From positions 914 through 64,913 of the forward strand of contig JAPOOK010000051.1 of the NCBI GenBank assembly GCA_026713485.1: a stretch of DNA of 64,000 nt, read 5' to 3'. Below the pieces are notes generated by a model. It saw only the letters and a list, made by a program, of their open reading frames with translations, was not told where the DNA came from and searched no databases. The position numbers were made by a program, and so were the translations under genes. Positions 7,647 to 55,381 of the stretch are shown here, piece by piece; position 1 is the first letter of the stretch, and each line of letters begins with the position of its first letter. The stretch comes from Chloroflexota bacterium (GTDB lineage Bacteria; Chloroflexota; Dehalococcoidia; UBA6926).

Positions 7647-8465
7647 CTACTCCCCTCTGAACTCCGGATCCCGCCGCTCAAGGAAAGATTGAATCCCCTC
7701 CTCGCGATCCTTCGTCGTTTGCAAGATCATCGTGAGGTCAGTCTCCAGCAGGATGCCCTGGTCAAGCGTCATCTCAGAGCCTGTCGAGATAACTTCTTTC
7801 GCGTAACGCGCCGCAATCGGCCCGCCGGCAAGTATCTGCGCTGCTATCTCCTGCGCCGTGGTCAGAACGTCGACGGGTGGCGCCACCCGATTGACCAGCC
7901 CCATACCCAGCGCCTCTTCGGCTCCTATGGTTCTGCCGGTCAGCAAGAGATCCGTCGCATGGGCAGGCCCCACGATGCGCGGCAGGCGCTGAGTCCCACC
8001 GTCCCAGGGAATGAGTCCTTGCAGCGCCTGACCCATCCGGAACTGGGCCGTTTCCGCGGCCACGCGGATATCTGCCGCCAGCGCCAACTCAAGCCCCTGG
8101 TCATAAGCGTCTCCATTAATGGCGGCGATAACGGGAAACGGTAGGGAGGCGACGGCGCTTGCGCATCGATAGCTGTCAAACAACGCTTGAGCCACGTGTC
8201 CCGATGCGGCCTCAGCAGATTCAGTAAGGAAAGACCGGCTTGCCCCTCGTGAGAAAGCAGCCGTATCGCCGCTGGGCCCATCCTTCGCCTGATCGACCCC
8301 GGTGACTATCAGCGCGTCAAACGGGCTGTCCTCCCGTAATGACGCGCACAGATCCCTCAACGCGAACGCCAATGCGCGGTCGATGAGATTGTCGGGAGGG
8401 CGGTTTAGGACGGCAATCAGCAGACGGCCCTCAGGCCGAAGTGTGATCGAATCGTTGGTGCTCAT
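7647..8465 (-). CDS. Enoyl-CoA hydratase/isomerase family protein
   Basis: Crotonase-fold motifs (AAINGDAYDQGLELALAADIRVAAETAQF). Start at MSTNDS (ATG 8465). Confidence 0.7.
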   Translation of the reverse strand: MSTNDSITLRPEGRLLIAVLNRPPDNLIDRALAFALRDLCASLREDSPFDALIVTGVDQAKDGPSGDTAAFSRGASRSFLTESAEAASGHVAQALFDSYRCASAVASLPFPVIAAINGDAYDQGLELALAADIRVAAETAQFRMGQALQGLIPWDGGTQRLPRIVGPAHATDLLLTGRTIGAEEALGMGLVNRVAPPVDVLTTAQEIAAQILAGGPIAARYAKEVISTGSEMTLDQGILLETDLTMILQTTKDREEGIQSFLERRDPEFRGE

Positions 8466-46779: not shown

Positions 46780-46855
<76 letters not shown>

Positions 46856-46923
46856 CCATGAATTCGTTACTCCACCTCCGGAAAAGAGACTCGACCACAC
46901 CATTCTCAAGGACGAAACACCAC

Positions 46924-48333
46924 TCACTCACTTACCGGAAGGCGAATGGTCACCGTCACGCCCTGTCCCGGACCATCGCTCGCGACATCAACCGTGCCTC
47001 CATGCGCCTCGATAATCGCTCGGGTGATGGCCAATCCCAGCCCCGTCCCGCCGACCCCTCGATTGCGGGACTGGTCGGTACGGTAGAAGCGATCAAAGAC
47101 GTGAGGAATGTCCGCAGCGTCGATGCCAATTCCGTCGTCGGTGATTGAAACAACCAGCGCCTCGTCGCCTTCTTGTCTGACCTTGAGCTGGATACTTCCT
47201 CCGGCCTCGGTGCAATGAATAGCGTTGTTGATAATGTTTCCCAGGGCCTGGCTCATGCGCATGCGATCAACATCCATGCTCGGAAGGTCAGGGGACAGAT
47301 CCAGCGACAGCGCAACTTGCCCGGCCTCACATTGGGGCTGCCACCGGTTCACTTCTGCCGTGAACAACTCATAAACCGATGTTGCTTCCCGTGCGAGCCG
47401 AAGCTCTCCATGATCGGTCTCCGCAAGCCAGTCCAGGTCAGTCACGATGCCGCCCAGCCTGTCCACCTCCTGGATGATGTGGTCCGAGGCGCTCTCAGGG
47501 GACTGAAGTCCATCCCGCAGCCCCTTCGCCTCCAGCTTGATAACACTCAGCGGGGTGTTCAGCTCGTGTGAGACGTCGTTTATCAGACGCCTGCGAAGCT
47601 CACGTTGGGTCTCCAGGGCGGAGGTCATCCGGTTGAACGCTTCGCTCATACGGCCCAACTCGTCTGAGGATGTGACCGGAAGCCGCGTCGCGTCCCCCTG
47701 GGCAATCGACTGGGTCGCCTCGGTCAAAGCCTTCACGGGCGCTGTGATCCGCCTGGACAACCAGAAAGCCACCAGGATGGCAATACCAATCGTCAGCGCC
47801 CCGCCAATTGCGGTGATGTAAAGAAGTGTATTCAGGAACCCATGTGTCTCGGTGGACAAGTATTCCTGGTTCACGTCCACGTAGACGTAACCCACCGGCT
47901 GGTCATTAGCCAGGTCGAACACGGTCTCCTGCCGCCCCTCCAGCTCGGACGTGATGTCTTCCGGAGAGAGCACGGACAGGTTGTCCATCACGACACGCCC
48001 ATCGAGCCCGGTAATCACGACTCTCACCTGGTCTTGATGGAATAGTTCCGAAGAGCCTTCCTCCCCCTCCCGGTGATTCTCCCCCTCCCGAGGACTGTCG
48101 TAAATGTATCCGGCCTCGGAAAGTGCCCGGTCCACGGTTGCCCAGCCACCGGCGGCGGTATATTCCCGGCTTATGTCTCTGGCAAGCTGAGCCGCCTCCT
48201 CAGTGCCGATCCGGTCCACGAACACACCTAGTCGGGCTTGCGTCGCGTAGTAGCCAACCGCGACGCTTGCCAGGACAGTAAGAAGGACGACCAGAACGGT
48301 CGCACCCATGATTCGCCAGTGCAGAGACATCAC
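46924..48333 (-). CDS. Sensor histidine kinase (periplasmic sensor + HAMP + HisKA + HATPase_c)
   Basis: H-box SHELNTPLS, and N/G1/G2 boxes (NNAIHCTEAGG, DDGIGI, GGTGLGLAI). Confidence 0.8.
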   Translation of the reverse strand: MMSLHWRIMGATVLVVLLTVLASVAVGYYATQARLGVFVDRIGTEEAAQLARDISREYTAAGGWATVDRALSEAGYIYDSPREGENHREGEEGSSELFHQDQVRVVITGLDGRVVMDNLSVLSPEDITSELEGRQETVFDLANDQPVGYVYVDVNQEYLSTETHGFLNTLLYITAIGGALTIGIAILVAFWLSRRITAPVKALTEATQSIAQGDATRLPVTSSDELGRMSEAFNRMTSALETQRELRRRLINDVSHELNTPLSVIKLEAKGLRDGLQSPESASDHIIQEVDRLGGIVTDLDWLAETDHGELRLAREATSVYELFTAEVNRWQPQCEAGQVALSLDLSPDLPSMDVDRMRMSQALGNIINNAIHCTEAGGSIQLKVRQEGDEALVVSITDDGIGIDAADIPHVFDRFYRTDQSRNRGVGGTGLGLAITRAIIEAHGGTVDVASDGPGQGVTVTIRLPVSE

Positions 48334-49007
48334 TCGTCCTCTACCACGAACCTGTAGCCCGCCCCGTACACGGTCTGAATCGGTGTATTGCCATCCTGGT
48401 TAATCTGCCTTCGCAGACGGGCAACCTGGCTGTCGATGGCACGGTCAAACCCTTCAAACTCATCGTTGAAGGCCAGGGCGATCAGCCGGTCCCGCGAGAG
48501 CACCTGGTTGGGGTGACGCATGAACGTCGAGAGCAAGGCTATCTGCGCCTGGCTCAGCGTCACGGGTTCTTCGTTGACCGTCACGACACTCGTGGTCTCG
48601 TTCAGCATGATGTTGCCGCGTATCAGAACCTGCTGGACTTTGTCCTTCACGCGGCGAAGCACGGCCGTTGCTCGGGCAATAACCTCATCCGGATCGAATG
48701 GCTTGACGATGTAGTCGTCGGCTCCAATGTCGAGTCCCATGATGCGCTCGGCAGGCGCTTCCCTGGCTGTCAGCATGATGATTGCAACGTCCGATTCCCT
48801 GCGTAGGATCTTGCACAACTCCACTCCGTCGAGGCGGGGAAGCATCAGATCAAGGATTATCAGGTCGGGAGCCAGCTCGCGGGCCAGTGCCAGACCGGCC
48901 TCGCCATCATGAGCAACCTCAGCGGAGAATCCGGCACGTTCGAAATACACCCTGACCCAGTTTGCGATCCGGGTATCGTCTTCAACTATTAGTACCGTGT
49001 CGCTCAT
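48330..49007 (-). CDS. OmpR-family response regulator
   Basis: Receiver domain (DD...D54-equivalent LDLMLP...K) and winged-helix C-terminus (GAGYRF). Overlaps the kinase gene by 4 nt. Confidence 0.85.
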   Translation of the reverse strand: MSDTVLIVEDDTRIANWVRVYFERAGFSAEVAHDGEAGLALARELAPDLIILDLMLPRLDGVELCKILRRESDVAIIMLTAREAPAERIMGLDIGADDYIVKPFDPDEVIARATAVLRRVKDKVQQVLIRGNIMLNETTSVVTVNEEPVTLSQAQIALLSTFMRHPNQVLSRDRLIALAFNDEFEGFDRAIDSQVARLRRQINQDGNTPIQTVYGAGYRFVVEDE

Positions 49008-49141
49008 CGTCGATCCCTGGGGAATGTCTCTGGGAGCGGTGCCTCAACTGAGGCACCGCTCCCACTTTCGCATGCGCTAGAGTCCATCATCTTACTTGAA
49101 GCGGCGGTGTGATAGTTCACTCTCGCCGATTCTGATCGGCC

Positions 49142-50710
49142 CTAGCCTCGTCCGCGTTCACCACCGGAGCCGTGCTCACCGCCGGACTCACTGCCGGAGC
49201 CATGCTCACCACCACCTTCACTGCCGCTGCCGTGCTCGCCGCCGGACTCACCGCCGCCGACTTCGGCATGGGCGACCCATCCGGTGAACGGCGCCTGCGT
49301 GGAGGGCATGTTGACTCTGGCCACCCAGCCCGGACCCAGGTTGACGGGATTCGTCGGCCCGAGCTCGGTTCCGTTCGACAGGTGCACCTCGATCCTGACT
49401 CGATTCAAGATGCTCCTCGTCGTATTCTCCACGGTGCCCTTGAACGAATTACTGGAAGCGTCATAGCCCAGGATCAGCCGCGCGCCACTGCGGATCTCGT
49501 CGAAGGTCTGGTCAGGCGCCAGCTGATTGGCCCCGCTGCCCTCTTCGCTGCCGGACTCTCCACTACGTTCACTGCCGGACTCGGCGCCGCTGCCTTCAGC
49601 ACTGTTGCTTCCGGAGCCTTCGCTGCCGCCTTCACCACCGGGCCCGTGGCCCTCGCCACCGGAACCCTCGCCGCCACCGCCTTCGCCTGAGCCTTCGCCG
49701 CCGCCACTTCCCTCAGTGCTCTGTCCCGGCATGTGAGGCACAGGTCCGGTGCCGCCGCAGTCGAACACTTCCAGGTGCACGACGTACCCGTCAAAGGAAA
49801 CTCCTGCGAGGCTCGGCTCGCTGGCCAGCGGCACGCTCGTCGCGGCCGATTGTCCGGGACTCAGGTGTCCCAGTACATCGGGGCCAAGCTCGCCAACAGT
49901 CGTCGTGCCCGACTTCAGGTGCGGTTCGGCCTGCACGTAGCAGAGCACCTGCGGGAGCGTGTTTGTGACCAGTGACTGGACCGATTGAGTTGCCGGATCG
50001 AACCGCGCAACGACGTCCAGTCCGCCAAGGTTGCCCGCCCAGGTATCACTGAGTGGAATGATGGGGCTGGACATCTCGGCTTCACCGGCCTCAGCACCCA
50101 TGCCGCCGCTCTCAGTGCCCTCGGGCCCCTCATTACCGCCCTCGCTGCCGCTGCCCTCGCCGCCGGACTCGCCACCGCCTTCACCGCTGCCAACTTCGGC
50201 ATGAGGTGTCCATCCGGTGAACGGTTCCACGGTTGAGGGCAGGTTGACCGGCAACACCTGACCCGGTGCCAGGTCGACAGGCGTCGTCGGCCCGAGCTCT
50301 GTGCCGTTGTCGAGGTGCACTTCGATCCTGACCCGCGTCAGGGTGTTATTGGTTGTGTTCTCCACCGTGCCTGTGAAGGCATTGCTCCCGGCGTCGTAGT
50401 TCAGGATCAAGCGCGCGCCGCTGCGAACCGTGTCGAAGGTCTCGTCAGGCGCCAACTGGTTTGCGCCGCTGCCCTCTTCACTGCCGGACTCGGAGCCTTC
50501 ACCGCCGGATTCTCCACCGGATTCACCGCCGGAGCTGTGCTCGCCGCCGCTCTCTCCGCCGGAACTCTCCTGGCTCGTGCCCTCGCTCCCGGACTCCGGA
50601 CCTTCGCTGGATTCGTTGTTGCTTGTGCAGCCGCTGAGGATCACCACCAGGAATAGCGCCCCCACCGCAACTACCAGGAACATACTTCTCATCAGCTTCT
50701 TGATAATCAT
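49142..50710 (-). CDS. Lipoprotein with an internally duplicated ~100-aa domain, Gly/Glu/Ser-rich acidic linkers and a His-containing (GGEHGSGSE)n tail
   Basis: LSGC lipobox. Two domain copies GANQLAPD(E/Q)TFD..RSGARLIL.YDA..N.F.GTVENTT...L.RVRIEVHL.NGTELGPT.PV.L.PG are >75% identical at protein and DNA level. Confidence 0.5.
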   Translation of the reverse strand: MIIKKLMRSMFLVVAVGALFLVVILSGCTSNNESSEGPESGSEGTSQESSGGESGGEHSSGGESGGESGGEGSESGSEEGSGANQLAPDETFDTVRSGARLILNYDAGSNAFTGTVENTTNNTLTRVRIEVHLDNGTELGPTTPVDLAPGQVLPVNLPSTVEPFTGWTPHAEVGSGEGGGESGGEGSGSEGGNEGPEGTESGGMGAEAGEAEMSSPIIPLSDTWAGNLGGLDVVARFDPATQSVQSLVTNTLPQVLCYVQAEPHLKSGTTTVGELGPDVLGHLSPGQSAATSVPLASEPSLAGVSFDGYVVHLEVFDCGGTGPVPHMPGQSTEGSGGGEGSGEGGGGEGSGGEGHGPGGEGGSEGSGSNSAEGSGAESGSERSGESGSEEGSGANQLAPDQTFDEIRSGARLILGYDASSNSFKGTVENTTRSILNRVRIEVHLSNGTELGPTNPVNLGPGWVARVNMPSTQAPFTGWVAHAEVGGGESGGEHGSGSEGGGEHGSGSESGGEHGSGGERGRG

Positions 50711-50896
50711 CGCCCACTCCTTTCATGTGGTCTTCGCGACGTCACCACGATAGGAGCGAAATGTCGCAGAAATATGTCGCCTGCCGACACTGTGCAAAAC
50801 CGGACGAGGGAGAGGCGAAACCGCCTCTCCCTCGTCTTCACACTATCTCTCCGGTTGGGGCCCTAAAGCCGAAACGGAGGGTGCAATCATGTCCCT

Positions 50897-51898
50897 TTAT
50901 GGAATCCAGGCTCTCCACACAGACTCGTTGGCATCAACCCACTCTTGTGCGGCCAGGCGCACCGTGAGGTCGTTCGCAGTCAGGTTGAGCACAATTTCGT
51001 TCTGTTGTGCGTTGGTCATCTGGAAGTTGTTGAGGAACTCGTATGCCTCCGGAAACTCCTCCTGAAGACCAGGCCAGATCAGCTTGGTGACAGGATCCGT
51101 TGGGTAGCCGCAGTCAAACCTCTCGCCATCCGGATAGCAATCTGAAGTCCATTCCGGCATCTCAATCGGGATAAGGTCGTACTTGGCGTGTGCCCAGTGA
51201 GGCTCCCACAGGTACGTGATAATCGGGTCGCCTCGCTGGAAAGCAGCATCCAGCTCGGCAAGCGCCGCGCCCTCATACCCGGCGAATACCACTTGGAAGT
51301 CGATACCAAACGCTTCGAGGCGTTCCTCCGGCCTCGTGTCCCACGCAGGCGTGAATTCAAGGAGCCTGCCGCTCGTGCCCGTGTCGCTCGTGGCAAAGAC
51401 GGACTTGTACTGGTCCATGTCGGCAACGCTGCGGAGATTGGGGGCGACGGCCTCTATGCCTCGCTCAGGGTCGCCGTTGACGATGTAGGAAGGCACATAC
51501 CAGCCCGTCTCTCCCGATATTCCTACCGGACCCATGCGATCCACCGTGGCCTCTTCGCCGTCTACGTATTCACCAAGGAGATCAGCGCTGTATGACGGCC
51601 AGTTGCAGCAAACGAAGTGAAAGTCGCCATTTTCGAGCCCGAGGAAGAGCGGTGCCGAATCGGCGGGCGCGAACTTGGTCGCGACCGTGTGGCCCATCTC
51701 TTGCTCCAACAGGATCTGCGCCACAGCCGTCGTGACGAGCTGCCCGTTCCAGTCCTGGTCGACGAGATAGAGTGTGCCTCTCTCGTCGTCTGACTCCATT
51801 TCCTCGTCGGCTTGTTCACAGGCCACCCCAACTGCAAGGCCAAGGGCCAACAGGCCTGCCAATAGGATTCCGATCCACTTGTTCTTCACTATGCTCAT
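50897..51898 (-). CDS. ABC transporter substrate-binding lipoprotein, glycine betaine/proline (OpuAC/ProX) family
   Basis: Signal peptide plus lipobox VAC. Trp-rich aromatic-box residues typical of betaine-binding proteins (GWYVP, WEPHW). Confidence 0.7.
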   Translation of the reverse strand: MSIVKNKWIGILLAGLLALGLAVGVACEQADEEMESDDERGTLYLVDQDWNGQLVTTAVAQILLEQEMGHTVATKFAPADSAPLFLGLENGDFHFVCCNWPSYSADLLGEYVDGEEATVDRMGPVGISGETGWYVPSYIVNGDPERGIEAVAPNLRSVADMDQYKSVFATSDTGTSGRLLEFTPAWDTRPEERLEAFGIDFQVVFAGYEGAALAELDAAFQRGDPIITYLWEPHWAHAKYDLIPIEMPEWTSDCYPDGERFDCGYPTDPVTKLIWPGLQEEFPEAYEFLNNFQMTNAQQNEIVLNLTANDLTVRLAAQEWVDANESVWRAWIP

Positions 51899-52019
51899 TA
51901 CTCTCCCCTCTCTGGACTAGTGGCGCAAAAGGCAAACCTTGGTCGTTTGCCTCATTGTGCGTCGTCACATAAGCATTCCTCCTTACAGGGTTTGCGGGCT
52001 CTTATTCTGAGTAGCCCCA

Positions 52020-54005
52020 TCACAATGCTCCGGCTGACATCGCAGCCGTCTGCTTTCTTTGAGTCATTCGATCAAACACCATTGCCATGAAAACGATGGT
52101 CATCCCCGCGACCAGGCCGTGGCCCATCTCAAGCCGGATGGAGTTGATAAAAACTTCCTGCCCCAGGCCGGCGCCGCCCACCAGGCCGGCGATGATCACC
52201 ATGGCCAACACCATGATGATGGTCTGGTTGAGGCCCATCATGATTCTCGGCAGGGCCAGCGGTATCTTGACCTGGAGCATTGTCTGGAAGCCTGTGGAGC
52301 CATGGGACTGCGCTGTCTCGATCGCCTCGTTCGGAACTTCCTTTAACCCCAGTGAGGTCATGCGGATCACAGGAGGCAACGCATACACCGCTGTGGCGAT
52401 GATGCCGACCAACGGCCCAATGCCCCAGAGCATGATCACCGGTATCAAGTAGACGAAGATTGGCATCGTCTGCATGGTGTCTAGGATGGGACGCAGGATC
52501 GACTCGAACGTCCTGCTCTGCGAAGCCAGGGCGCCGAGTGTGACACCAACGACTACCGTGAACACTCCGGCCGTCAGCACCTGGCTCAGTGTGACAACGG
52601 TCACGTCCCAAAGCCCGCCGATGCCCGCGAACAAGAGCCCCATAACTGCAAGTAAGGCCACGCGCCATCCCGCGGCAAAATAAGCGGCAACGGCGGCAAT
52701 CACCATCAGCGCCGGCCAGGGAAGCCAGAGCAAGAACGTATTAATGGGTGAATACCCTAGCTCACGGAACAAGGTATCGCGTATCCAGCTTGTCACACCG
52801 TAGAAATTGATAGCCATCCAGTTGAAGACGCTATTAATCTGGTCCGACATTGTAAAGGTCAACTCGTCTGGGAAATCCCTCAGAGGAGCGATGAACGCGC
52901 CAAGAAGCGCAAGGACGCCCATCAGTACGATGCCGCCCACAAGAAACGGGTTCTGAGAAGCCATGTTGCGGATGGTCTTGCCGGCTGTCCCCTCGCCGGA
53001 GGGCTTGGTCGATGAGGCGGCCGCAGTAGCTCGCGGACCGGACTGTGCAAGGGCGTAACTGAACCTGTCCAGGATGATAGCCAACAGCACGATAGCGATG
53101 CCGCTCTGCAGCCCATCCCCGGCGTCCACCTCCCTCAGCGAGAGCCAGACATCCCGGCCGAGGCCCTCCACGCCGACCAGCGCGGTAATGATCACCATGG
53201 CAACCGCCATCATGATGGTCTGGTTGACGCCCATCATGATTGAGCTCTTGGCCAACGGAATCTGAACGTGAAATAGCGTCTGGGTGGGTGTTGATCCATG
53301 AGACTGGGCTGTTTCGACAACTTCCTGTGGAACCTGGCGGATTCCAAGGTTAGTCAGCCTGATGACGGGTGCAATGGAATAAACGACAGTCAGGAAAACG
53401 CCCTGCGCCCCGGCCACCCCAAACAGGACCAGCGCCGGAATGAGGTACACAAATGCGGGCAGCACCTGCATCGTGTCAAGAATCGGGCGGACCATCGCCT
53501 CGAATCGATTGCTGAATGCCGCCAATATGCCAATAGGAACCCCGATTCCGACGGCGATAAGCACGGAAAGTCCGACCATGCTTAGAGTGACCATCGCGGA
53601 GTCCCAGAAACCAATGAGACCGGTGAACAGCGCGGCCACGCCGCTAAACACTCCCAGCCATTTGCCGCCGAGCCGGAAACCCACAAGTGAAACCCCTGCC
53701 ACCACAAGCGGCCATGGGAGCCACAGCAACAGGGCATCAATTCCGGCTATGCCTGCGTCAAGCACGTCGGCGATAGGATTGAAGAACCAGGCGAACGTAT
53801 CGCCGACCCACTCAAAACTCGTGTCGATGACCCCTTGGATGGGCAGTTCCCAGCTGCGCGGCCAGTTGCCAAAATCGGTGTTTGCCTGATTCGTCGCGAG
53901 TGTATAGGCCAGGAGATAGGTAAAGGCAACAATTACCGCCCACAGGAGCCACCGGAATCGTGACTCTCGGAGAAACTGGAGTTGCAGTGTATCCGTACGG
54001 ATCAC
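52020..54005 (-). CDS. Fused tandem ABC permease (two OpuAB/ProW-like membrane domains in one polypeptide)
   Basis: Two copies of the EAA-loop region ([20 protein letters not shown]...IMMG.NQTI) in 661 aa. Confidence 0.75.
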
Positions 54006-55381
54006 GCTACACCCTCGTCACTCACCAGGGCGGCCATCGCCTCAACCCGGGTTATTGTGCCGATGCATCGGCCGTCGTCCAGGACGGCGATGGGTGCGTC
54101 ATTGTCGATGACGAGGGGAATAAGCTGTTCTAGACGGGTATCTGCTTCAGTAACGGGGCATGAGTCCTGCATCGTGGATGCCACGCTCGTGTGCGCTGCC
54201 GCGCCATTCCTTGGTACATCGTCCAGGTGCACGGTTCCAATGAACAAACCTTCCCCGTCCACCACCACTGCGCATTCGCATTCCTGCGCGGCCATTGCGC
54301 TCATCACGTCGGCCACCGACTGATCCGCCGTCACGTAGACGGAGGGCTCTGTCATCACGGATCGGGCGGTGAGGACCTTTGAACGCGGCACGTCTCGTGT
54401 GAAGTCACGCACGTAGTCGTCAATGGGATTGGAGACCAACTCTTCAGGTGTGCCTACCTGGACGAACTCTCCGTCCTTCATGATGGCAACCCGGTCTCCC
54501 ACTTTGATGGCCTCCAGGAAATCGTGTGTGATGAAGACCATCGTCTTCTTGACCATTTCCTGGAGCCCGATCAGCTGATCCTGCATATCCCGACGGATGA
54601 GAGGATCAAGAGCGCTGAACGGCTCATCGAAAAGAAGGATCTCGGGGTCGACGGCTAGGGCGCGTGCCAACCCGATACGTTGCTGCATGCCCCCGCTCAG
54701 CTCATGAGGATATCGCTGCTCCCAACCTGACAAGCCCACCAGGTCAATGACTTCCTCCGCGCGATGAAGCTGCGTGGCCTTGTCGATGCCCTGGACCTGC
54801 AGGCCGTACACGACGTTATCTAGGACCCGCTTGTGGGGGAAGTTGCCGAAGTGCTGGAAGACCATGCCCATCTTGTGACGACGGACATCCCTCAGCTGCT
54901 GCTTGCTCATCGCGAGCAAGTCCTCACCGTCTACGTGGACATGTCCGAGAGTCGGCTCGATGAGCCTGCTCAAACAGCGGACAAGCGTGGACTTGCCACT
55001 GCCGGAAAGACCCATGATGACAAAGGTCTCTCCGTCAGATACATCGAACGAGACGTCCCGCACGGCGAGAACGCTCCCGGTCTCGGCCAGAACGTCTTCC
55101 CGGGTCTGGCCGGGCTCTACAGAATCGGCAAGCTCCTCGGCTCCGTCTCCAAAGACCTTCCAGAGGTTTTCGCAGACAAGTCGGGTCTCGACCTCTAAGC
55201 CGGGTTCGTCGGCAGGTCGCGAAAGATCGGCAGCATTGAGCGCTGCGGCATGATTATCGATATGGCACACCCCCCCACGGTGTTTCTCCACTCGGATATG
55301 AGCAGGGCTGACAGGAGGCATCGTCTCCGGCGCCACCCACCGCCTTGTGGTACAGCGGTGAGATTTAGACGCTTCGGCCAA
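54002..55381 (-). CDS. ABC transporter ATP-binding protein (OpuAA/ProV-like) with C-terminal tandem CBS domains; true start probably downstream of the ORF-track start
   Basis: Walker [10 protein letters not shown], signature LSGGMQQR, Walker B LLFDEP. CBS pair in the C-terminal ~120 aa. Confidence 0.8.

Follow-up and report, generated by a model that had tools for sequence, protein, structure and literature searches.

The 64,000-nt stretch of DNA analysed here (the window) comes from contig JAPOOK010000051.1 of a Chloroflexota bacterium (GenBank assembly GCA_026713485.1; Dehalococcoidia, UBA6926), and on its minus strand it encodes a lipoprotein of 522 amino acids (aa) followed by a response regulator (RR) and a sensor histidine kinase (HK). 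A functional link between the lipoprotein and this two-component system (TCS) is strongly supported by a comparison with 77 related loci, which were taken from one-genome-per-species contigs. We consider it very probable that the three genes constitute a cassette with its own regulation. The fuller proposal, in which the lipoprotein is the first gene and the principal output of a self-contained three-gene sensory cassette and buffers the cation that induces it, has in our opinion about an even chance of being right. The features of the cassette are as follows, in the order of transcription.

50758-50778, minus strand: control box GACATATTTCTGCGACATTTC, a direct repeat GACAT-N8-GACAT with a 13-nt period (from conservation)
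50747-50752, minus strand: -10-like hexamer TATCGT (TAnnnT; from conservation)
50717-50724, minus strand: Shine-Dalgarno sequence GAAAGGAG before the ATG at 50710 (from sequence; CACGAAAGGAG in most loci)
49142-50710, minus strand: 522-aa lipoprotein with three FxLYD-like beta-sandwich domains in the order A-B-A' and Gly/Glu/Ser/His linkers (open reading frame, alignment and model)
50627-50710, minus strand: signal peptide and lipobox, residues 1-28, ending in VILSGC (pattern match)
50189-50461, minus strand: domain A (D1), residues 84-174, a seven-stranded beta-sandwich with E130/H132 (E-x-H) and H170/E172 (H-x-E) (AlphaFold2, FxLYD model and conservation)
49736-50074, minus strand: domain B (D2), residues 213-325, a diverged copy of the A fold (alignment and conservation)
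49256-49528, minus strand: domain A' (D3), residues 395-485 (alignment)
49145-49255, minus strand: C-terminal tail with three GGEHGSG repeats and the basic end GERGRG (from sequence)
49032-49063, minus strand: perfect 15-bp GC-rich hairpin with no U-tract, between the stop of the lipoprotein gene and the start of the RR gene (from sequence and folding)
48330-49007, minus strand: OmpR/PhoB-family RR, the stop of which overlaps the HK start by 4 nt (open reading frame, Pfam and NCBIfam)
46924-48333, minus strand: sensor HK with a first transmembrane segment, an outer domain of about 130 aa, a second transmembrane segment, HAMP, HisKA and HATPase_c (open reading frame and Pfam)
47839-48237, minus strand: extracytoplasmic domain of the HK, residues 33-165 (kinase sequence)
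48028-48096, minus strand: conserved Glu/His-rich loop of the HK, residues about 80-102 (ortholog conservation)

Orthologs of the RR and the HK, scoring 360–420 and 650–800 bits, respectively, are found directly downstream of the lipoprotein gene and on the same strand in 65 of the 74 loci with enough downstream sequence, and the four apparent RR exceptions in the tally are over-extended RR open reading frames (ORFs). The first-pass annotation, made from the DNA letters of the window, had suggested that the lipoprotein works with the neighbouring kinase and had recommended a check of co-occurrence across genomes; this conserved order bears the suggestion out. Clustering of the flanking ORFs showed that the conserved unit comprises lipoprotein, RR and HK alone; no further conserved neighbour that could give a clue to the regulon was found in it, alaS/ruvX lying near seven loci and a GAF-PAS hybrid kinase/regulator, the next commonest neighbour, at 15. 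The loci are distributed among Dehalococcoidia/SAR202, Tepidiformaceae, Caldilineaceae, Anaerolineales, Acidimicrobiia and one OM1 actinobacterial bin. Nine loci have no TCS beside the lipoprotein gene but still carry the box ahead of it, as would be expected if they held additional copies of an output gene under control in trans. The TCS itself is of the OmpR/PhoB type according to Pfam (Response_reg 100.7, Trans_reg_C 72.6, HAMP 55.8, HisKA 43.2 and HATPase_c 101.5 bits). It could not be assigned to any named system, as neither protein reached an NCBIfam equivalog cutoff, the best hits being PhoB and BaeS.

Two further observations concern the TCS context. One Dehalococcoidia metagenome-assembled genome (CATOSI01; loci L011, L020 and L062) carries three lipoprotein copies with the box and with no adjacent TCS. 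The hybrid kinase/regulator is a single-chain GAF-PAS-HisKA-HATPase-receiver-winged-helix protein of about 810 aa encoded within a few kb of the cassette (L020 16049-18487, minus strand, and 14 others, e.g. L036, L042, L053, L057 and L068), and it may provide another input to this box.

The box is the second element that ties the lipoprotein gene to a regulator. The string TGACATATTTCTGCGACATTTC is placed about 30–50 nt before the start codon in the window and 60–75 nt before it in the locus alignments, and with up to 4 mismatches it was found upstream of the lipoprotein gene in 75 of the 77 loci. It occurs nowhere else in the 20-kb flanks, where 12 other hits all precede lipoprotein genes missed by the clustering, and the whole window contains a single match (up to 3 mismatches; 0 expected by chance). 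In the metagenome collection the exact box is present 29 times: 16 occurrences precede FxLYD lipoprotein genes, single-domain ones included, one more precedes a lipoprotein-like ORF cut by the contig end, one is directly before a regulator gene (locus L107), and the remaining matches are on unrelated contigs, about the number expected by chance. The hexamer TATCGT begins 5 nt past the box and 8 nt past the second GACAT, and the TA of TAnnnT is at least 90% conserved (55 distinct instances). A generic sigma-70 scan of the box region gave no promoter, and there is no -35 match at sigma-70 spacing. A direct repeat that abuts the -10 element, with no -35, is the classic arrangement of OmpR/PhoB-family activators. 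TATCGT may serve as the -10 element, and the box is a candidate binding site of the RR of the cassette. The box was also considered by hand as an ECF-sigma (extracytoplasmic function) or plain sigma-70 promoter, and this was rejected since the spacings to TATCGT (9 and 22 nt) do not fit.

Variants of the box arrangement occur in two loci. The metagenome contig L107 has the box twice on its minus strand (1025-1044 and 2284-2303), in one case preceding the lipoprotein gene and in the other the regulator gene, at a distance of 21 nt; the TCS of that lineage may have its own operator copy. No second box is present in the window. In L002 (about 7900-7960, plus strand), a variant with an 11-nt period, GACACATTTGTGACAC, precedes the stand-alone single-domain Acidimicrobiaceae gene P0049, which has no adjacent TCS and is divergent from a gene pair for an ABC (ATP-binding cassette) ATPase and a DUF7224 protein.

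The third conserved element is the hairpin between the lipoprotein and RR genes, with a minimum free energy of -34 kcal/mol in the window (z -7.3). Of 47 non-redundant loci, 81% have a hairpin at this position, built from differing stem sequences (medians of -28.7 kcal/mol, in a 44-nt window, and z -4.1), which means that the sequence covaries while the position is fixed. The hairpin could be a partial terminator or a 3'-end stabiliser, and either role would make the lipoprotein message more abundant than that of the TCS.

The protein encoded by the first gene starts with MIIKKLMRSMFLVVAVGALFLVVILSGC, a signal peptide ending in the lipobox LSGC with Cys28 (pattern match), and an equivalent signal with a lipobox-type motif is present in 59 orthologs. 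Its composition is dominated by Gly (21.5%), Ser (13%) and Glu (11%), Met amounting to 1.3%. D1 and D3 have the same residue at 82 of 108 positions, and their DNA is 75% identical over 300–333 nt (alignment z 69 versus shuffles). The duplication reported in the first-pass annotation is therefore real at both the protein and DNA levels, with an identity of 76%, slightly lower than the 80% or so given there. Its more diverged third domain between the outer pair was likewise recovered, D2 being 32–34% identical to D1 and D3 (z 13–16 versus shuffles). Domain B carries two conserved Cys residues (LCYVQAEPHL and EVFDC), followed by a conserved PVPH / EGHGP segment. Modelling of the single repeat unit by AlphaFold2, one of the checks that had been proposed, gave a confident beta-sandwich for domain A (predicted local distance difference test, pLDDT, 92.8). 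The acidic G/S/E linkers were confirmed too, and the tail, GGGESGGEHGSGSEGGGEHGSGSESGGEHGSGGERGRG, consists of three GGEHGSG units.

The duplication is not recent, as had been supposed. Among the 77 loci the A-B-A' layout was counted in 57 in the final tally, with three more dropped by a filter, and the variants B-A and A-B were counted in 11 and 6 loci, respectively. In 59 A-B-A' proteins the mean identity of the A domains is 82% within a protein, compared with 77% (N-N) and 75% (N-C) between loci; no alignment column discriminates N-terminal from C-terminal A domains, and the nearest relative of an N-terminal A domain is the N domain of another locus in 48 of the 59. Within the window, 41 of the 84 DNA differences between D1 and D3 are at third codon positions. 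The conservation of A-B-A', the ancestral layout, in lineages as distant as Dehalococcoidia/SAR202, Caldilineaceae and Acidimicrobiia and the identities within and between loci rule out a recent origin, and the pattern is that of a long-standing duplication kept under strong constraint and homogenised to some extent inside genes.

Long ORFs in other frames or on the opposite strand are present inside the lipoprotein gene, e.g. 49172-49690 (plus), 49474-49794 (minus) and 50315-50656 (plus). They have Ala/Gly/Thr-rich translations and seem to be artefacts produced by the repetitive, GC-rich codons of the linkers, and equivalent antisense ORFs form clusters in 9 loci because the underlying gene is conserved. 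In L001 (7042-8483, plus strand, on a 2.6-Mb contig) two overlapping ORFs take the place of an intact lipoprotein gene and the regulator gene is likewise broken up (153 + 83 aa), which suggests frameshifts from assembly error or decay.

The lipoprotein had been described as a member of an unknown family. In fact it passes the cutoff (23 bits) of the NCBIfam model NF038353 (FxLYD_dom), with 39.7 bits for the whole protein and 27.7 for D1, D3 scoring 18.7 (below the cutoff) and D2 being undetected; a family name is thus available, to which no function is attached. The alignment spans positions 2–57 of the 71 in the model, and the nearest string to the name-giving motif, ILNYD / ILGYD, is outside the aligned stretch. 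One relative is called 'FxLYD domain-containing protein' at NCBI and nearly all others are unnamed or 'hypothetical', and a literature search under the name of the domain returned nothing relevant. A protein search over 5.8 billion proteins gave at least 1,448 relatives of the domain and at least 1,743 full-length relatives, and when 1.84 billion representatives were scanned exhaustively with HMMER, the hits formed 851 clusters at 50% identity, with 1–3 domains each; full-length homologs of 730–780 aa also occur. The folded domains are 70–80% identical across at least two phyla, with their polar residues conserved. Pfam gave nothing above cutoff for the lipoprotein (weak hits: GEVED, DUF7507, DUF7537 and TOBE), and no match to CopM (DUF305), CpxP/ZraP/Spy, CopC/PcoC or other known periplasmic metal-binding or accessory families was obtained at E ≤ 0.1 in Pfam and NCBIfam. 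No relative was found in the PDB by sequence or profile, an exact-sequence lookup of the 522-aa protein returned no match, and fold searches gave only generic Ig-like sandwiches, the closest being surface/biofilm proteins and lipoproteins (SadB, RbmA, YjhA and YajI).

Some distant family members are fusions: P0275 (594 aa) combines Cache-like sensor domains with two A domains, P0363 (318 aa) a Cu_amine_oxidN1 domain with an A domain, and P0381 (429 aa) an A domain with what may be a TbpB-like beta-barrel, the match of 23 bits being weak and short of the cutoff. Neither box nor TCS accompanies the stand-alone single-domain relatives that end in HPEVG, and several short 'single-domain' database hits (e.g. 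P0004 and P0006) are fragments of multi-domain genes.

The clues to a ligand are the His and Glu residues. In the orthologs, linker His is found almost only as G-E-H-G-(S/G) (115 GEHGS, 63 GEHGG and 52 EGHGP), and the tail contains two or more EH motifs in 54 of the 68 orthologs; with this conserved context, the His/Glu-rich tail to which the first-pass annotation drew attention is a real feature. The linkers consist of 34% Gly, 15% Glu and 12% Ser, with a median of about 209 linker residues per protein. An apparently low-GC, Lys-rich homolog, P0249, keeps A-B-A' and the Glu/His/Gly-rich linkers, and GC content therefore does not account for the linkers. Both domain types conserve E-x-H in strand 4 and H-x-E in strand 7, and the outer-domain loop of the HK, REGEGHGEGE..SE..FHxD, is conserved and has the same Glu/His chemistry as the linkers of the lipoprotein. 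This ligand set suggests borderline or hard cations (Zn, Ni, Co, Cu(II), Fe) or proton sensing, and we propose, somewhat more tentatively than the scheme as a whole, that the lipoprotein binds cations.

We suppose that the cassette works as follows. The outer domain of the HK would detect an extracytoplasmic signal, and the phosphorylated RR would bind GACAT-N8-GACAT, placed where a -35 element would be, and switch on the lipoprotein gene. The hairpin would let only part of the transcripts pass into the RR and HK genes, so that the lipoprotein is made in excess. Its lipid would anchor it on the outer face of the membrane, with the three beta-sandwich domains held on flexible acidic tethers, where its Glu and His residues (E-x-H, H-x-E and the GEHG repeats) could bind whatever induces the cassette, a divalent or transition-metal cation being the likeliest candidate. 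The cation would be buffered at the cell surface and the signal damped, in the fashion of CopM-CopRS. The variable number of domains (1–3 domains; A-B-A', B-A and A-B; the longer homologs) fits a binder whose capacity is scaled better than a 1:1 co-sensor. A bolder form of this scheme, which we regard as possible at most, is that an undescribed autoregulated module consisting of operator, FxLYD-like lipoprotein, attenuating hairpin, RR and HK occurs in at least two phyla, with a new beta-sandwich (E-x-H / H-x-E site and GEHG tethers) that captures a specific metal cation at the cell surface and a kinase that senses the same cation by its chemically matching loop. Its hosts would be uncultured marine and apparently sponge-associated Chloroflexota and Actinomycetota.

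Several points weigh against a cation-buffering cassette of this kind. The A domains contain no Cys or Met, and therefore Cu(I) or Ag(I) is unlikely as the ligand. The metal site E130/H132/H170/E172 is a candidate read from conserved motifs, and acidic Gly/Ser-rich tethers may be generic spacers in such lipoproteins. The model of the HK sensor domain is poor (pLDDT 52.5), its usable part being an order of helices, long unstructured loop, four strands and helix. Clustering of the flanking ORFs revealed no conserved gene for a metal transporter, oxidase or chaperone near the cassette. As for the regulation, the assignment of the box to the RR comes from co-occurrence only, and its 13-nt period differs from the 10–11 nt that is usual for half-sites of the OmpR/PhoB family. 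No other box-controlled gene was found, by exact match, in the metagenomes or, in the genomes, within the 20-kb flanks, a scope in which further members of the regulon could be missed.

Three other explanations of the lipoprotein have to be compared with a regulated cation buffer. It could be an accessory co-sensor that contacts the outer domain of the HK and sets its activity, in which case the signal might be envelope stress or something else that is not a cation. The tight linkage of lipoprotein, RR and HK is in accordance with this, both partners face the same compartment, and their similar Glu/His-rich loops could interact, possibly bridged by a cation; there are also precedents, proposed in the case of CseA-CseC and demonstrated for QseG-QseE and CpxP-CpxA. 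However, in the nine loci mentioned above the lipoprotein gene and its box occur with no kinase adjacent, and three such copies are found in one genome; the family includes proteins with differing numbers of domains, a variation seldom expected of a stoichiometric partner; and the box marks the lipoprotein as the regulated output, no other target having been found in the metagenomes or the 20-kb flanks. A co-sensor seems to us less likely than a cation buffer. It is nevertheless compatible with cation buffering, because a lipoprotein loaded with ligand could do both.

A still less probable role is that of a structural or buffering protein of the envelope, a tethered polyanion induced by envelope, ionic-strength or pH stress, whose pH-titratable Glu-His pairs would condition the surface. 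The Gly/Glu/Ser-rich linkers and the closest folds, which belong to surface/biofilm proteins and lipoproteins, would agree with such a role, as would the best family matches of the HK, namely the envelope-stress kinases BaeS, WalK, MtrB and CpxA, all of which are below the curated NCBIfam cutoffs. Yet the domains and their polar residues are strongly conserved in at least two phyla, as would be expected of a protein with a specific ligand or partner and not of one that supplies bulk charge. Finally, the first-pass annotation had also raised the possibility that the lipoprotein is a cargo of the neighbouring OpuA-type importer, to which a role as its second binding protein or accessory may be added. 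The genes are immediately adjacent and on the same strand in the window and in loci L005-L007, but these three are the only loci in which OpuA-type genes flank the lipoprotein gene, and their DNA is 94–96% identical to that of the window; no related transporter adjoins the gene in the remaining related loci. Moreover, the 522-aa protein has no OpuAC or other substrate-binding-protein domain in Pfam, and a terminator-like hairpin lies between the two sets of genes. A link to the transporter is rejected because the adjacency is limited to near-identical genomes and a terminator intervenes, and we consider it extremely improbable.

Among known systems, the closest functional precedent for a cation-buffering cassette is copMRS of Synechocystis sp. 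PCC 6803, in which the gene for an exported binding protein is likewise followed by those for RR and HK; its first gene encodes a periplasmic and extracellular copper-binding protein that is under the control of CopRS and confers resistance by itself (PMC4335983). The two differ in that CopM binds Cu(I), whereas the A domains here have no Cys or Met, and in that no copBAC-like efflux operon is linked here. Nor is there any sequence relationship, the lipoprotein having no Pfam family above cutoff. CopM is a helical DUF305 protein. SilE and PcoE, the genes of which adjoin those of the metal-sensing TCSs SilRS and PcoRS, are extracytoplasmic, His-rich, repeat-bearing and partly disordered metal buffers (PMC5008109). 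SilE, however, is wholly disordered and binds Ag(I) by His and Met motifs, whereas the present lipoprotein has a lipid anchor, three folded domains, little Met and no Met motifs, and linker His in Glu-His motifs (GEHG) instead of His/Met motifs, and hence is not a sponge of the SilE/PcoE type.

Similar gene order is found in the sigE-cseA-cseB-cseC operon of Streptomyces, in which about 90% of the transcripts stop after the first gene and loss of CseA raises promoter activity (PMC6767563). There, too, genes for a lipoprotein, an RR and an HK follow one another in a bacterium without an outer membrane, the in-operon termination parallels the hairpin described here, and CseA is thought to modulate the kinase from outside (PMC6767563). 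But the first gene and regulated output of that operon is a sigma factor, it is reported to be confined to Streptomyces (PMC6767563), and the comparison made here is one of gene order. In QseG-QseE (PMC6075780, PMC12691602) and CpxP-CpxA (PMC4160245), the kinase receives feedback from an extracytoplasmic partner whose gene accompanies those of the TCS or is under its control. Both are Gram-negative systems. The lipoprotein here has no CpxP-like or other known Pfam family. The box resembles the pho box as a direct repeat just upstream of the -10 in place of the -35, and differs from it by a half-site period of 13 instead of 11 nt. The HK, with a large outer domain and no Pfam PAS hit, presumably is not a PhoR. 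Within the FxLYD family, with its 851 clusters, the cassette subfamily has hallmarks of its own, namely the GEHG linkers, the box and the TCS. The cassette is thus a known regulatory logic on an uncharacterised domain family, no relationship to the named precedents in sequence or fold being apparent.

Dehalococcoidia/SAR202 and their relatives among the Chloroflexota form abundant groups in both ocean and sponges (PMC6306507). Most of them have not been cultured, and inputs or outputs have been assigned to almost none of their signalling circuits. The cassette is unusually easy to read from sequence, as a single pair of sensor proteins with a near-invariant operator and just one output gene, and it is conserved in considerably more than a thousand proteins. 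With a metal as the ligand, the domain would count as a new module for cation binding, and box and RR together could be used as a compact sensor part; otherwise the cassette would be a clean case of a TCS whose only evident target is its extracytoplasmic partner. Should the metal-capture module prove true, it would represent a new metal-binding fold and a cation-homeostasis circuit in lineages without genetics.

The rest of the gene block belongs to the transporter. According to the ORF listing of the window all six ORFs are on the minus strand, and the coordinates together with Pfam agree with the identities proposed for them at first reading. The transporter features are these.

54002-55381, minus strand: ABC ATPase with ABC_tran and CBS domains (Pfam)
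52020-54005, minus strand: fused permease of 661 aa with two BPD_transp_1 domains (Pfam)
50897-51898, minus strand: OpuAC binding protein (Pfam)
50796-50836, minus strand: intrinsic-terminator-like hairpin after the OpuAC gene, GACGAGGGAGAGGCG-GTTT-CGCCTCTCCCTCGTC followed by CGGTTTTG (from sequence and folding energy)

The last of these is a perfect 15-bp hairpin with a T-tract (minimum free energy -38.2 kcal/mol, z -7.25 with 200 shuffles), situated upstream of the promoter region of the lipoprotein gene. It has the look of a terminator that ends the transporter operon and separates it from the lipoprotein cassette. On this evidence the OpuA-type transporter is an incidental neighbour, unrelated to the lipoprotein. 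In the ATPase ORF the listed TTG start puts about 100 residues before ABC_tran, which begins at residue 108, and the true start is probably further downstream; Pfam detects one CBS stretch in it, at residues 340–389. Over the region Rfam detected a tRNA alone and no known riboswitch or leader. This tRNA-Lys (anticodon TTT; 46780-46855, plus strand; Rfam 62 bits; ARAGORN) is convergent with the kinase gene, 69 nt from its end, and the listed ORF that overlaps it (46795-47148, plus strand) is probably spurious.

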